Source: an uncultured virus (IMG/VR IMGVR_UViG_3300031565_000011) (Duplodnaviria > Heunggongvirae > Uroviricota > Caudoviricetes). From it: a stretch of 28,629 nt of DNA. The position numbers were made by a program, and so were the translations under genes. Shown piece by piece: positions 12,462 to 23,714 of this stretch. The stretch's first letter is position 1, and each line of letters starts with the position of its first letter. Where the stretch lies: the IMG/VR virus record IMGVR_UViG_3300031565_000011; one strand, given 5' to 3'. Under the pieces are notes generated by a model that was not told where the DNA came from, did not search any database, and saw only the letters and a program-made list of their open reading frames with translations.

Positions 12462-12875
12462 CTATAATATTTTACCAACTTGCGGCCTTTTCTTTTCTCT
12501 TTTCAATGGTTCAATTATTGTTCGCCCATCCGCAAGTAAATCAAAAGGGGAAATATAATAATAACCTAATTTATAATCAGCATATATAACCTTTCTTTTC
12601 TGCCAGTATATCTTTACGTTAGAATTACATATCGTTCTATATTCGATATAGTAAGCCTTACCTAAATCTTTTCTCCATTCGGCCGCTATCGGCATTCTAT
12701 AATGATCCTTACGGATATTAGTTTCAGCGAACTCAATATATGGTCCACGTTCACCAATAACTATTCGCGTATATCCAACCGCTATAAGTAAACCATCTCT
12801 GGTTCTGAATTCAGGGGCGTAACCTTTCCCTGGAATAATAGGTATCTTTAATCGTTTAATATAGTTTGTAGCCAT
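12462..12875 (-). CDS. Phage hypothetical protein
   Basis: 137 aa, AAGGA RBS; aromatic-rich GYTRIVIGERGPYIEF...YADYKLGYYYISP. Confidence 0.65.
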   Translation of the reverse strand: MATNYIKRLKIPIIPGKGYAPEFRTRDGLLIAVGYTRIVIGERGPYIEFAETNIRKDHYRMPIAAEWRKDLGKAYYIEYRTICNSNVKIYWQKRKVIYADYKLGYYYISPFDLLADGRTIIEPLKREKKRPQVGKIL

Positions 12876-12906
12876 GATTTGATTCCTTATATATTCTTTT
12901 TGCTTA

Positions 12907-12980
12907 TGGGCCTTGTAGGACTCGAACCTACGACCTGCTGATTATGAGTCAGCTGCTCTAACCAGTTGAGCTAAAGGCCC
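12907..12980 (-). tRNA. tRNA-Ile2 (anticodon CAU, lysidine type); CCA not encoded
   Basis: GGGCCTTTAGCTCAACTGGTTAGAGCAGCTGACTCATAATCAGCAGGTCGTAGGTTCGAGTCCTACAAGGCCCA folds as a full cloverleaf. C4-G69/C5-G68 pairs (TilS determinants) and CTCATAA loop; G1-C72 paired and no GGG/CCC anticodon stem, so not an initiator. Confidence 0.93.
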
Positions 12981-12994
12981 ACCGCCGACCCGAA

Positions 12995-13420
12995 CTACGC
13001 CTCTACCTCGTCAACAATCTTTATATATATATCGAGTGCCTCTGGCGTTATATCCTCGGTTAATTCAATAGTATCAAACTGACTATGTAGTTTGACCCAA
13101 CGAATCGGGATATCAAGTTTATGTGCGTATTTTATTTCTTCTATAACTCCTATGCTATCCTCCCAACCAGGAAGCATAAGCACGAATAATTCGGTGCATT
13201 TAGAAAGGAAAAAGAAATCGTATTCTTTCCAGTCTTCGAATCCACCGAAGAGCCTTCCTCCGCTCTGCTCGACTATCGGATGCGAATGCGATAGAGGGGA
13301 GAATACTTTCATCCCACTCTTAAATAATAGAGCAGCAGCCTTGGAAGCGAGTTTCGCTCTTTGGGCCATGACCTTTGGATCACAATGCGAATAGGGTGCC
13401 GCCAAATATTTCAGGTCCAT
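12995..13420 (-). CDS. DUF1937 family protein (nucleoside 2-deoxyribosyltransferase-like fold)
   Basis: YLAAPYSH...SPLSHSH...W...D...LPGWEDSIGV..EIKYA; AGGAGG RBS. Confidence 0.8.
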   Translation of the reverse strand: MDLKYLAAPYSHCDPKVMAQRAKLASKAAALLFKSGMKVFSPLSHSHPIVEQSGGRLFGGFEDWKEYDFFFLSKCTELFVLMLPGWEDSIGVIEEIKYAHKLDIPIRWVKLHSQFDTIELTEDITPEALDIYIKIVDEVEA

Positions 13421-13554
13421 ATCGTCCTCCTGACCTTCTCGATCCGCCTTCTACAATCCTTGCATCGACTGCCGAGCAGGATAATATTTTCTTCCGTATC
13501 AACCCATCCCTCTTTCCACCGATCAAAATATGGTAAAGGGGACTGATGTCGCAT
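13411..13554 (-). CDS. Small hypothetical protein (47 aa, CxxC)
   Basis: Below the ORF-track cutoff; strong AAGGAGGTG RBS; MRHQSPLPYFDRWKEGWVDTEENIILLGSRCKDCRRRIEKVRRTIWT; overlaps the next start. Confidence 0.6.
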   Translation of the reverse strand: MRHQSPLPYFDRWKEGWVDTEENIILLGSRCKDCRRRIEKVRRTIWT

Positions 13555-13600
13555 ATCTCACCTCCTTCCCACCTCTAAAAAGGTCTTACGTAACTTCAAC

Positions 13601-14135
13601 GCGGATGGCGGGCCATGCTCTCCGGGCCCTTTATTGGGATTCGTTCGCGACCCTGGCATTGTTAATCGCCCGCCATTTACCCGCGACTGCAATATATCAT
13701 GGTGAGTGATTGCTCACCCACCATAGAAGAAGGAACATCGGTCGTTTAGGGATGAGGAGTACTCTACCTTCTTCACGACCTTTGCTCCAATATCTTAACG
13801 GGCTTCCAGACCAGACCAACCGCCCAGAAGCCCATTGTGACAACACGCACGATATCTTATAAATAAGCGAGTTTCCGAGGCCCGCGAGACAGTTCATCGT
13901 ACATTGATAGCGCCTGCCCCGCTTTCCTAAGGCAGTAGGCGAACGATTTGTAGGCAACCTTCTGCCCTGTCGCCTTTTGTCGCCCCTCAACAAAACCTCA
14001 GCTTCGCATTTCCAATTTTTTTTACATAGGCGGGCACGAGTTTACGGCTTCCGCTATCGCCGCCAAGTTATCTCTTGGTCAGATTTAGGGGCCAAGCCCG
14101 AGGGTTACTCGATTTTATTTCCACGGGCGCAGCAG
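13601..14135 (-). ncRNA. Putative structured non-coding RNA(s) downstream of the tmRNA
   Basis: Consecutive stems whose mismatches are G-U wobbles on the minus strand, a GCAA tetraloop hairpin (13699-13724), a pseudoknot (13726-13780); no convincing ORF or RBS. Confidence 0.55.
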
Positions 14136-14140
14136 TTTAG

Positions 14141-14524
14141 TGGAGGCGGCGGGAATCGAACCCGCGTCCCGTCCGAGCATTCCCGCTCCGTCTACAATCA
14201 TGTTCCTTTGTTCTGTATTCGGCACAAAGGAAAAGGCCTCTCCGGAACTTTCTCCGGATAAGTCAGCGCCTATTTCTCGCATAATATCCGGCGCGAATAC
14301 TATGCCAGTCTGAATCGCGGCGTTACTTCACAGAACTCAGACAATTCCATGAGCAACGGAATGATCGTCAAGCAACCATTCTGGCGGCCATCTCGCTCCT
14401 GAAATTCAGCGGCGAGGCGACCTTCTTATTCTTGTTGGCACTTAGTTTTTTTGTGCTCCGTATCGTGGTAGCATACGGATTGCAGGAAACGCTTCAACCC
14501 GCCGGTCGAGCCCTTTACGCCCCC
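14141..14524 (-). ncRNA. ssrA: tmRNA (SsrA), one-piece, 384 nt
   Basis: 5' GGGGGCGTAAAGGGCTCGAC and 3' GACGCGGGTTCGATTCCCGCCGCCTCCA; acceptor stem with G3-U; PK1-like TCCGTAT/ATACGGA; resume context TAAGT-GCC; tag ORF 14439-14368 ANKNKKVASPLNFRSEMAARMVA*. Confidence 0.95.
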
Positions 14525-14532
14525 ATTTAATG

Positions 14533-14674
14533 TGCCGGGTCACGGGGAAAGGCTACCCGGCATTGCCTTGCTAACTCTGCCATTACCCAAGGCTACCCCG
14601 ATTTATGCCTTTAGGCCAGTCCCCACTTTGGGTAAGCGGGCTGGAGACCTGTTACAGGCTGAGTATTTACCCGC
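14533..14674 (-). ncRNA. Putative structured RNA (three stem-loops) immediately 5' of the tmRNA
   Basis: GCGGGT/GCCCGC (14674-14636), TTACCCAA/TTGGGTAA (14635-14583), TGCCGGGT/ACCCGGCA (14562-14533). Confidence 0.5.
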
Positions 14675-14692
14675 ATTTCTTCTTTAGTTCAA

Positions 14693-15459
14693 CTATGCTA
14701 ATCTATTATTTATTTTTGGTATATCAGCAAGTCTTCTTCTTGCTATTCTTATGTATTCTTTTCCGATATCAAATCCTATAAAATTTCTACCTAATAATTT
14801 AGCAGCAACAGCAGTAGTTCCAGTACCAATAAAAGGATCAAGAACGATATCTTTTTCTTTGGTAAAATATTTAATAAAATATTGTGGAAGACTCCTTGGA
14901 AAAGTTGCATGATGTTCTTTAAAGTGTTCGGATTTAAACCATGTTTTTATATTAGGAACATATCCATTGAGTGGAAAGTTATTATATCGAAATAAAAGAT
15001 TACCCTGTCCAAACATAAAAACATACTCCCATCCTTTAGCCACCCCTCCGCTTTTTTTGCAGTTATATTTGAAACCGCATGTTTATGCCATATAAATATA
15101 TCTATCAAATTATCCTGAAATTCGTTTTGAAGAAGCAAAATTGAACTCCTGGTGCTTTTAAGAAATTGAACATTCCAAAAAACATATCGCGAAACTCTTA
15201 AGCATTCCCTAATAGCTTGTATTATCCATAAACAATATTTTTTATCATTTATATCATCATCATAAGTATCATAATACCTATCTCCAATAGTGCTTCGCGG
15301 ATGGTATCCTAAGTTTTTTTTACTACCTATATTATATGGCGGGCTTGTAACTATTAAATCTATACTTTTATCTGGAATTTTGCTCATCCCTTCAATAGCG
15401 TCTATACAATATACTTTATTCAATTTCTTATTTAATTGTTTCTTAGTATATACTTTCAT
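14693..15459 (-). CDS. DNA methyltransferase, beta-class (SPPY, probably N4-cytosine), split by a -1 frameshift at A7 (15052-15058)
   Basis: ORF 14947-15459 carries DLIVTSPPYN; ORF 14693-15043 carries HHATFP and VLDPFIGTGTTAVAAKLLGRNFIGFDI. Joining at GCA AAA AAA/AGC GGA gives one ~255 aa enzyme. Confidence 0.85.
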
Positions 15460-21738: not shown

Positions 21739-22656
21739 TTATTCATAAACCAGGGTCAGCTGTTCAGCAATAGCATTGAAGTTCCTATGTCGAAGTTCGA
21801 GTCGATGAAACTCCTTTTTTAATTTCATCCAGTCGATGGTCCGGCACCCCCTGAAAGACTTCATTGTAGAAAGAAACATGCGGCGTTGCTTCTTCGGCAG
21901 TTCTTCTGGTACACGTAATATCTTAACCAAGTTATAAGCCAACTCGACTTGTTTTATATGTTTACGAACTAAAATAACTTTTTTATTTATAGTTCGTCTA
22001 GTCATTATCTGTTCAATGGTTCGGAAACTCTTAACTATTTCTATTGCCCCTTTTTCTCCTATTCCTGGAATACCAGGTATATTATCTCCCTTGTCTCCCA
22101 TTATAGATTTTATTTTTACTAAATCACTTGGTTTAAGTCCGCTGTACATATCAGCAAATTCTTTTCGTCCTACTAATTGTTTTGTATTCGGGCGATATAT
22201 TTTTACACCAGGACGTATAAGTTGAAGCAAGTCACGATCGGCGGAACAAATAATAGTTCGGTGCCCCTTATCAGCATAACCAAATGCAACCAATGCCATA
22301 ACATCATCGCCTTCAATCCCTGGAAGGATTGCTTGACGGACATTCAAGGCCTCAAAAAAACGTCGTGCGTCGGCTATCTGTTCAAAAAGAGATTGATTCT
22401 TTTCCCGACTTTCCTTTCGGTTGGCCTTATATTCTGGAAACAATTTTTTCCTAAATTGTGAACCATCAGGCGGGTCCCAACAAATCACCAAACGATTATA
22501 TCTAAACTCCTCATGTAACCCCTTTATCATCTGGAGCATGCCCGATATAACAGAGGTCTGTCTCCCACTCGAGGTTGATAGATTACGTGTCTTATAGGCC
22601 CGCCAAGCAAAAAAGTTTCCGTCAATTATAAATATCAGTTTAGGCTTCTTCTTCAT
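21739..22656 (-). CDS. 5'-3' exonuclease / flap endonuclease (Pol I N-terminal, T5 exo/T4 RNase H family)
   Basis: IIDGN, FRKKLFPEYKANR, EGDDV, SADRDLLQL, GDKGDNIPGIPGIGEKGA; start moved to ATG 22656. Confidence 0.93.
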   Translation of the reverse strand: MKKKPKLIFIIDGNFFAWRAYKTRNLSTSSGRQTSVISGMLQMIKGLHEEFRYNRLVICWDPPDGSQFRKKLFPEYKANRKESREKNQSLFEQIADARRFFEALNVRQAILPGIEGDDVMALVAFGYADKGHRTIICSADRDLLQLIRPGVKIYRPNTKQLVGRKEFADMYSGLKPSDLVKIKSIMGDKGDNIPGIPGIGEKGAIEIVKSFRTIEQIMTRRTINKKVILVRKHIKQVELAYNLVKILRVPEELPKKQRRMFLSTMKSFRGCRTIDWMKLKKEFHRLELRHRNFNAIAEQLTLVYE

Positions 22657-23191
22657 AGGAGTCTTCCTTGATAAAGGTAGGAACGCGCTCAACGAACCTT
22701 CTGATTTCGGATAGGTCGATGAATTTATCAACCGAATTCACCAGGTCAATAGAAGCCGTATCGAACTTCGACGAAACAGCAATGACCCTCTTCCCGTTAT
22801 TGCGCAGATAGTCGACGACTGGGCAAAAGTCCCCATCCCCAGTGCAAAGGACGGCTATGTCGTAATTCTTTCTTGTTAGAATCATGTCAAGTACCATCAT
22901 GATATCGGTATTCGATTTGATTGTGACAAGTTTACCGCCCTTATGGATTCGTTGTTGTTCCCTCTTCCTAACAGTAAAGCCATTGTTGATAAGGAAGATA
23001 GCGAACTTCTTTTTCCTATCATCGTCATCCCAGGAGGTATAGTAAAAACAATCATATACGTTACAGTCAGCGGTCAACAATTCCCTGAGTTTGGCGAAAT
23101 CGATATGCCAACCCAACTGCGCCAGCGATCCGTAAAGATTGTCTCCATCAATGAAGAGAGCGACTCTTTCCTTCTTTCCTTGTGTGAACAT
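22640..23191 (-). CDS. NYN domain protein (LabA/DUF88, PIN fold)
   Basis: ALFIDGDNL, K..TD..MVLDM, LCTGDGDFCPVV...GKRV, S..L...D.FIDL; start ATG 23191 behind GGAGGT. Confidence 0.9.
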   Translation of the reverse strand: MFTQGKKERVALFIDGDNLYGSLAQLGWHIDFAKLRELLTADCNVYDCFYYTSWDDDDRKKKFAIFLINNGFTVRKREQQRIHKGGKLVTIKSNTDIMMVLDMILTRKNYDIAVLCTGDGDFCPVVDYLRNNGKRVIAVSSKFDTASIDLVNSVDKFIDLSEIRRFVERVPTFIKEDSYEEEA

Positions 23192-23192
23192 T

Positions 23193-23714
23193 TTATACCT
23201 CCAGCATTTCTTGACGCCAGCTAGCGACGTCAATATGGCCTGCCTTTGCTATTGACATATATGCCACTCCGTAGGCATCCGCTACGTCGTTAAGTCGGCC
23301 CCTGGTTATTCTTTGAAACGAACAGCCGGAATTAGCAAGGACGACCTCGACCATTTGCTTCTTATCTGAGTTACCATTCCCGGTCACAAATTTCTTTATT
23401 GACTTCGGCGCGATTATGTTGACGGGTATTCCGGCTTCGTGAAAATACCTTTTTATAATTCCTCCCAACTCTCCCCTATCCATAGCCTTACCTGTCCTGG
23501 AAAAGAAAGCATAACCTTCCAACCCAACTCCTTGAATCTTCCAAGTAAGGCATATCCGTCTAACTACTGATTCAATAAATACAAGCCGTTCAATATCCCT
23601 AAGTTTTTTAGGTTGGATAACCCCATACCGAAATACTCGCGGGTTTCGGTCAATTACTTTGATGATGCACCAACCAGTACTTCTCAACGATAAATCAAGT
23701 CCGAGATATTTCAT
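23193..23714 (-). CDS. RuvC-like Holliday junction resolvase
   Basis: LGLDLSLRSTG, LEGYA, ELGG, PKSIKKFVTGNGNSDK, DVADA. Confidence 0.88.
   Translation of the reverse strand: MKYLGLDLSLRSTGWCIIKVIDRNPRVFRYGVIQPKKLRDIERLVFIESVVRRICLTWKIQGVGLEGYAFFSRTGKAMDRGELGGIIKRYFHEAGIPVNIIAPKSIKKFVTGNGNSDKKQMVEVVLANSGCSFQRITRGRLNDVADAYGVAYMSIAKAGHIDVASWRQEMLEV

Follow-up and report, generated by a model that had tools for sequence, protein, structure and literature searches.

The DNA considered here is a 28,629-nucleotide (nt) stretch from an uncultured phage (IMG/VR record IMGVR_UViG_3300031565_000011), called the window in its full length, in which all genes lie on the minus strand. Our subject is a part of it, ~1.07 kb long, built around a one-piece transfer-messenger RNA (tmRNA) gene at 14138-14524 (-). 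The original prediction had described this part as a dense array of unassigned structured RNAs around a phage tmRNA, and the tmRNA itself was borne out: it scores 105 bits against Rfam model RF00023 (gathering score, 47), covers model positions 1 to 374 of 374, and is full-length, with a tRNA-like acceptor and T-arm. ARAGORN reads its tag as ANKNKKVASPLNFRSEMAARMVA, followed by a stop codon, and the identical tag is found in the two relatives described below. The 3' end of the gene is ...CCUCCACUA, so that the CCA is not encoded. On either side lies sequence without a credible open reading frame (ORF), ~164 nt upstream (14525-14688) and ~580 nt downstream (13555-14137), with a G+C content of ~50 to 53% compared with 28 to 47% in the adjoining DNA. 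What surrounds this genuine tmRNA is a patchwork of separately exchangeable modules, protein-free and read in the same direction as its neighbors.

The IMG/VR record of the window itself (G001) has the identical sequence and adds no comparison, and the informative relatives are two in number: a 90,431-nt phage genome with a completeness rating of 100% (G002) and a 5,660-nt metagenome contig (L139). Set against these, the region resolves into four modules that are inherited separately, M1 (14525-14688), the tmRNA gene (14138-14524), M3 (13784-14137), and the M4 cassette (12876-13783). Beside the tmRNA gene, their parts are as follows.

M1, 14525-14688 (-): 5' flank between the methyltransferase stop codon (14693-14695) and the tmRNA, with three hairpins.
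M3 body, 13838-14137 (-): 3' trailer of the tmRNA in the window, L139, and G002, without a conserved ORF.
M3 terminal hairpin, 13795-13837 (-): 15 to 16 bp including G-U pairs; z = -5.68, 0/200 shuffles.
M4 leader, 13555-13783 (-): 229-nt 5' untranslated head of the cassette; z = -3.32 as a whole, 0/200 shuffles.
M4 cassette remainder, 12876-13554 (-): a 47-amino-acid (aa) ORF, a DUF1937 protein, and tRNA-Met.

G002 retains the tmRNA and the next 358 nt (window 14137-13780) and lacks M1; an unrelated gene lies upstream there, and the tmRNA starts 10 nt past the stop codon of that gene. Both G002 and L139 lack window 12876-13783, a block replaced by ~68 nt with the same joints in both. In G002, the ribosome-binding site (RBS) and start of a homolog of the window's 137-aa gene come immediately after the counterpart of hairpin 13795-13837, and it is the 0.9-kb M4 cassette that splits the RBS from the start codon of this gene in the window. 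Between 16123 and 14269, L139 matches the window except for an additional A in an A-run, and hence has the same M1, identical in sequence; from 14268 onward it equals G002. L139 is a recombinant with its crossover inside the tmRNA gene, which is a recombination joint. M3 is found with the tmRNA in each of the three lineages (window, L139, and G002), while M1 and the M4 cassette are optional.

Only two alleles of M3 are known, because L139, G002, and a DNA sequencing run (X6), which carries allele 2, are identical there; M1 and the M4 leader are each known as one sequence. The sequencing runs listed for this sequence comprise nine of DNA and none of RNA; two of them besides X6 (X7 and X8) cover 12800-13613 and 13762-13835 and not 13614-13761, and no contig spans the gap, so they do not count as evidence. 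The tmRNA alleles differ once in 387 nt (99.7% identity; 0.26% divergent), the M3 body by 2.7%, and the 102-aa gene by 1 nt, and the 137-aa gene keeps 57% third-position identity. Divergence is thus mosaic along the genome and therefore says little about constraint. Between the modules, there is no sequence similarity beyond one shared 10-mer and no pairing better than in shuffles, the energy of the M1-M3 leader-trailer duplex being reached by 17/100 shuffles. A stem-closed RNA operon, bracketed by leader and trailer in the style of rRNA operons, was rejected on these grounds (the M1-M3 duplex is at chance, and G002 has no leader at all), and so was the idea that the modules are tmRNA-like paralogs, as the look-alike motifs GGGGCGACAAAAGGCGAC and UAAAGGGCCCG are within the shuffle range.

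The individual stems within the modules were compared with shuffled sequence; M3 ends in the terminal hairpin already given, and the remaining stems are these.

E1, 14636-14674 (-): M1 hairpin; z = -2.41, 2/200 shuffles.
E2, 14583-14635 (-): M1 hairpin with the closing helix UUACCCAA/UUGGGUAA, a perfect 8 bp; z = -0.53, 60/200 shuffles.
E3, 14533-14562 (-): M1 hairpin with the perfect 8-bp closing helix UGCCGGGU/ACCCGGCA; z = -0.68, 49/200 shuffles.
Candidate H-type pseudoknot (-): S1, 13775-13780/13740-13745 (z = -0.96, 33/200 shuffles); S2, 13767-13774/13726-13733.
GCAA hairpin, 13698-13725 (-): 12 bp; z = -5.31, 0/200 shuffles.
Rod, 13600-13685 (-): z = -1.86, 7/200 shuffles; marginal.

Two hairpins only, 13795-13837 and 13698-13725, are clearly beyond shuffles, and relative to them E1 is marginal. 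M1 as a whole folds at chance (z = -0.26, 83/200 shuffles, and z = -0.55, 54/200 shuffles). The z-scores of the whole M4 leader and of the 548-nt 3' flank (z = -2.95 on the minus strand, 0/100 shuffles, versus -1.78 on the plus strand) are carried largely by the strong hairpins. Thus, among the stems named in the original prediction, the M3 terminal hairpin and the GCAA hairpin stand, with z below -5, E1 and the rod are marginal, and E2, E3, the multibranch domain (13867-14007), and pseudoknot stem S1 do not rise above chance. Its claim that the stems favor the minus strand held: region 13790-13845 folds at -26.4 kcal/mol on the minus strand versus -11.3 on the plus strand, the second strong hairpin at -18.2 versus -12.9 kcal/mol, and E1 has a z of -2.41 versus -0.28, alongside the contrast in the 3' flank. 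The weakness of the strong hairpins on the plus strand indicates RNA in the tmRNA sense. A further claim, that the first and last elements share the start GCGGGTAAAT, survives in part: the 10-mer does occur at exactly two places, 14674 and 13684, yet its significance is marginal, as at least 4 one-mismatch matches were seen in 15/100 shuffles and the local-alignment score was reached by 9/200.

A scan of 12700-15200 found no intrinsic terminator (a hairpin and then a U-tract) on the minus strand, and the lack of a terminator-like site on that strand inside the tract is consistent with read-through. The search for promoters told little: a sigma-70 scan returned 3 sites versus 4.7 expected, and no site in the tract matched the -33/-7 promoter consensus known for Bacteroidota.

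Comparative data, though few, bear on the M3 terminal hairpin. Its counterpart in G002 has a z of -6.43 (0/200 shuffles), and in both G002 and L139 it adjoins the RBS of the next gene. The sequence after the window hairpin, GUUAAGAUAU, is not a U-tract. Between the alleles there is one compensatory change, C-G to U-A (13830/13803), the apical changes keep pairing, and the stem is retained across a loop that differs by a 5-nt indel and 5 substitutions. A SAM/SAH riboswitch (RF01727) placed on hairpin 13783-13836 was rejected, as it scores 15.1 bits versus a threshold of 40 and its loop is not conserved between the alleles.

The body of M3 is different in that its folding is at chance (13982-14128, z = -1.27, 22/200 shuffles; 13867-14007, z = -1.55, 13/200 shuffles). 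It holds 8 allele differences in the ~297 nt before the hairpin region, and M3 is 97% identical between alleles. On the minimum-free-energy structure of the window allele, the 14125 change still permits a G-U pair, three others (14135, 14095, and 14000) lie at unpaired positions, and those at 14091, 14034, 13983, and 13956 fall on predicted pairs, with 14034 and 13956 clearly breaking the pairing. In a control of 400 random mutants carrying the same kinds of change, the real allele 2 is equaled or surpassed in folding by 73% (minimum energy) and 80% (ensemble energy), so by these folding models no structure-preserving bias is detectable in that allele. M3 also contains a direct repeat, GGCGACA-AAA-GGCGACA at 13965-13985, with copies 10 nt apart start to start, the first of which reads GACGACA in the other allele; a protein-binding site is conceivable.

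Flank lengths were compared among 38 one-piece tmRNA calls in fetched phage loci, the window's own record and G002 included, all of which share the window's 26-nt T-arm/acceptor word except L140 and L141, which were fetched by the tmRNA 5' 20-mer. On the 5' side, the ORF-free stretch has a median length of 18 nt, and on the 3' side the median is 27 nt. The next longest trailers after that of G002 (L012 and L020) open with ordinary terminator-like hairpins, and the long trailer is a real peculiarity of the tmRNA family formed by the window, G002, and L139. In three other phage contigs, L045 (920-1500), L067, and L035, a dCMP-deaminase-like gene (HAE...PCxxC) lies ~10 to 80 nt after the tmRNA, its longest frame reaching back into the tmRNA.

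The explanation that we favor, with middling confidence, is that the tract comprises the leader (M1) and trailer (M3) of a tmRNA precursor and the untranslated head of an inserted M4 cassette, punctuated by a few strand-specific hairpins with processing, stability, or insulating roles. The tract would be transcribed with the tmRNA as one precursor. M1 would act as a structured 5' leader, lost on cleavage at the mature 5' end, and M3 as a 3' trailer trimmed away before CCA addition, a step expected because the CCA is not encoded. The minus-strand hairpins (13795-13837 and, in the M4 leader, the GCAA hairpin and the rod) may then serve as processing signals, as stability or 3'-protection elements, or as insulators between the RNA gene and the downstream mRNAs, in the manner of RNase III-type hairpins between the cistrons of phage early transcripts. 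Most other stems would be what any noncoding sequence of 52% G+C predicts, without a separate function. In favor of this explanation are the modularity, the genuine tmRNA, the lack of a conserved ORF, the two strong hairpins with their minus-strand bias (one with a compensatory change despite its loop indel, and next to an RBS in G002), the chance-level M3 body with no structure-preserving bias in allele 2, the lack of similarity or pairing between modules, the lack of a terminator on the minus strand, and the lack of an Rfam match.

Several points weigh against this explanation. It calls for co-transcription, processing sites, and the involvement of ribonucleases (RNases), all of which we infer. 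Perfect Watson-Crick helices of at least 8 bp within 70 nt number 4 in the 754 nt of flank (E2, E3, pseudoknot S2, and the rod core, the last two being helices of 8 to 9 bp), against a mean of 0.5 in dinucleotide shuffles, with 0/500 reaching 4; their density is ~3.5 times that of the rest of the window (1.53 per kb; Poisson p ~0.03). This enrichment exceeds what a plain spacer needs, and to that extent the picture of flanks densely tiled by stems was upheld, although by folding energy most of the listed stems are at chance. M3 is 97% identical between alleles versus 57% third-position identity in the adjacent 137-aa gene, a contrast for which constraint and plain mosaic ancestry are both possible causes. 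The consensus that RNAalifold gives for the two M3 alleles (100 pairs), which is fitted to both alleles and hence biased by construction, has no broken pairs and shows six one-sided changes and one two-sided change. Finally, the longest ORF-free trailer among the 38 phage tmRNA genes is that of G002, at 356 nt, and so unusual a length needs a reason.

The original prediction's statement that its elements fit no known family was confirmed. At gathering scores, Rfam 15 has no family in the flanks (GOLLD, ROOL, riboswitches, and self-cleaving ribozymes included), and permissive scans (E <= 10 over 1.6 kb; E <= 5 for each flank alone) gave noise only, with three matches far short of their thresholds: SAM-SAH (15.1 bits versus 40), ftsZ-DE (18.7 versus 72, and on the opposite strand), and tmRNA_permuted (26.3 versus 47). 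A BLASTN search for distant matches to 13560-14700 among 50,697 phage records found only the tmRNA T-arm, in 13 records, and among 120 fetched loci the flanks matched G002 alone. Exact-word scans of IMG/VR (an M1 22-mer, an M4-rod 18-mer, an M3 20-mer, and a tmRNA 5' 20-mer), which detect near-identical DNA only, returned nothing but the window's own record, plus G002 where the part is present. Scanning Joint Genome Institute (JGI) metagenome contigs with the tmRNA 20-mer gave five loci, with L139 new and informative and L140 and L141 carrying unrelated tmRNAs, and scanning genome contigs with the tmRNA 5' 20-mer gave one metagenome-assembled genome, in which the flanks are unrelated. Routes through the neighboring proteins (DUF1937, the 137-aa gene, and the methyltransferase) led to no locus with an M1-, M3-, or M4-like element, and a BLAST query made of M3 and the M4 leader matched 0/50 whole viral records, an empty answer that shows little. 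Overall, no diverged homologs of the flanks were found in the collections searched (IMG/VR, JGI metagenome contigs via the tmRNA 20-mer, INPHARED, and the 50 viral records).

We consider it unlikely that the tmRNA precursor releases uncataloged stable small RNAs, namely M3 (~300 nt) and perhaps also the three-hairpin M1 (~160 nt), for which a role in translation or antidefense is possible. The tie of M3 to the tmRNA in 3/3 lineages with alleles 97% identical, a trailer without equal for ORF-free length among the 38 genes, the excess of perfect helices in the flanks, and the preference of the helices for the minus strand all speak for it. So do three one-sided changes that suit plausible helices, G-U to G-C at 13956 in the helix GGCGAC/GUYGCC, U-G to C-G at 14000 in CUGAGG/CCUCGG, and C-G to U-G at 14125. 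Against these must be set the chance-level folding of the M3 body and of the whole of M1, an allele 2 that keeps folding energy no better than random mutants, the fact that M1 is dispensable in the complete relative G002, the absence of homologs from the collections just listed, and the lack of an Rfam family match. The more general suggestion of a polycistronic operon processed into several small RNAs is possible. A more ambitious version, in which M3 would be a new ~300-nt tmRNA-linked noncoding RNA (ncRNA) cut from the precursor and closed by the 3' hairpin, with M1 as an optional 160-nt companion, and in which the RNA would tune or exploit ribosome rescue or act as a decoy for an RNA-binding host factor, seems to us more doubtful again.

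Also improbable in our judgment, on a par with small RNAs released from the precursor, is that the flanks are functionless passengers captured with the tmRNA, together with scars of cassette exchange, the hairpins being incidental or ordinary intergenic ones. The mosaic presence and absence of modules, the role of the tmRNA as a recombination joint, the absence of structure-preserving bias in allele 2, and the fact that M1 and the M4 leader are each known from one sequence are all what such passengers would predict, as is the divergence of M3, ten times faster than that of the tmRNA (8 changes in ~297 nt versus 1 in 387). However, z is below -5 for two hairpins, of which one shows a compensatory change, perfect helices are enriched, and phage genomes are usually tightly packed, as the median tmRNA flanks of 18 and 27 nt illustrate. 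Moreover, in the single genome that shares the tmRNA 5' 20-mer, the flanks are unrelated.

Protein coding is far less probable than any of the above, in line with the earlier judgment that the flanks hold no credible ORF. The 98-aa ORF at 13697-13993 has GAGG 5 nt before its TTG start, and its first 51 codons are open in both alleles. It runs across the M3/M4 junction, however, and is truncated to 57 aa in the G002/L139 allele by the 5-nt loop indel; the shared 51 codons carry 2 nonsynonymous and 0 synonymous changes, and the ORF has no Pfam match. An alternative 52-aa frame, open in G002, is closed by a TGA in the window. Least credible of all is a single large ncRNA akin to GOLLD or ROOL across the whole 1.07 kb, one of the options raised in the original prediction, for although its size, G+C enrichment, and site beside tRNA and tmRNA genes resemble those of GOLLD and ROOL, a functional tmRNA sits in the middle, Rfam gives no match at permissive thresholds, long-range pairing between the parts is not above shuffles and they share no similarity, and the architectures of G002 (without M1 and the M4 leader) and L139 (without the M4 leader) contradict it, a single RNA being excluded because the modules, two of them optional, are separately inherited and the tmRNA is a recombination joint.

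Known systems offer partial parallels to a processed tmRNA precursor. The tRNA cluster of phage T4 yields two small stable RNAs (species 1 and 2). Like the window elements, these are unassigned structured RNAs co-oriented with phage tRNA-type genes, for which release from a common precursor is the shared idea; species 1 and 2 were seen as stable molecules, whereas the window elements are known from sequence alone. Intercistronic hairpins of the RNase III type occur in the early transcripts of phage T7, and processing stems occur in rRNA operons. The likeness here lies in long hairpins, lacking a U-tract, that separate an RNA gene from the following cistron and are strand-specific through G-U pairs. 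The window stems measure 12 to 16 bp, toward the lower limit for RNase III, and no leader-trailer pairing brackets the window tmRNA. The large structured ncRNAs GOLLD and ROOL occur in phages near tRNA-type genes, a context that the window shares, while differing in that its flanks have no Rfam match, are modular, and are interrupted by a tmRNA.

Among tmRNAs proper, one report finds that 402 of 18,146 phage genomes have tmRNA genes and describes in phage Melnitz a two-piece tmRNA with a glutamine riboswitch in the ssrA 3' domain (PMC9004378), and another reports tmRNAs in huge phages (PMC7162821). Melnitz, as described there, resembles the window in having a structured RNA element directly beside a phage tmRNA, but the window tmRNA is one-piece and its surroundings match neither glnA nor any other riboswitch model. 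With phage one-piece tmRNA genes in general, the window family has in common a complete phage-borne tmRNA; in those genes ORFs usually abut (medians of 18 and 27 nt), whereas here the trailer measures at least 356 nt and two of the lineages add a structured leader of 164 nt. Genes for tmRNA are not common in phages, and little work has been done on how they are expressed; in this family the gene serves as a joint for module exchange and carries an unusually long, hairpin-ended trailer. Should the trailer or the optional leader turn out to persist as a stable RNA, it would count as a new phage RNA with a link to ribosome rescue. It is more likely that the two are precursor flanks with processing hairpins, that is, ordinary biology, and the case shows that dense predicted stems in G+C-rich noncoding DNA can be, as here, mostly at chance level.

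Some further observations concern the tmRNA gene itself. The predicted tag ANKNKKVASPLNFRSEMAARMVA is long (23 aa) and ends in MVA; two other metagenomic tmRNAs sharing the 5' 20-mer have the tags AKTTMLRRAA and AAPLRMAA, both ending in AA. A permuted or two-piece tmRNA (RF04321) was rejected at 26.3 bits versus 47, since the match borrows the T-arm of the real tmRNA and includes a nonstandard pair. A second ARAGORN call, a permuted tmRNA at 13836-14232 (tag DRAEGCLQIVRLLP), likewise reuses the real T-arm together with the look-alike GGGGCGAC; the G002 allele (GGGACGAC) pairs less well in the permuted acceptor than the window allele does, and the call is most likely an artifact. The 21-nt tmRNA tail occurs only once in the window with up to 3 mismatches allowed, with no second copy beside the element, and an att-like duplicate of the tail was rejected for this reason.

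The M4 cassette downstream of its leader contains three genes.

47-aa ORF, 13411-13554 (-): first ORF after the leader in the M4 cassette.
DUF1937 protein, 12995-13420 (-): Pfam E = 7e-19.
tRNA-Met, 12906-12981 (-): called in agreement by ARAGORN and Rfam.

Beyond it, the proteins of the window form a recombination and replication module (RecA, SbcC/D-like, RuvC, an NYN-domain protein, a 5'-3' exonuclease, and Cpn10). The NYN-domain protein (PF01936, E = 8e-31), of a predicted ribonuclease family, is encoded at 22640-23233, between the RuvC and 5'-3' exonuclease genes. Upstream of M1, the N6/N4 DNA methyltransferase gene (14693-15459) is represented in the window by two overlapping ORFs of 170 aa and 116 aa and in L139 (665-1432) by one intact 255-aa ORF, the sole difference being one extra A in an A-run (window ~15049-15058); this split of the frame could represent phase variation or an assembly error.

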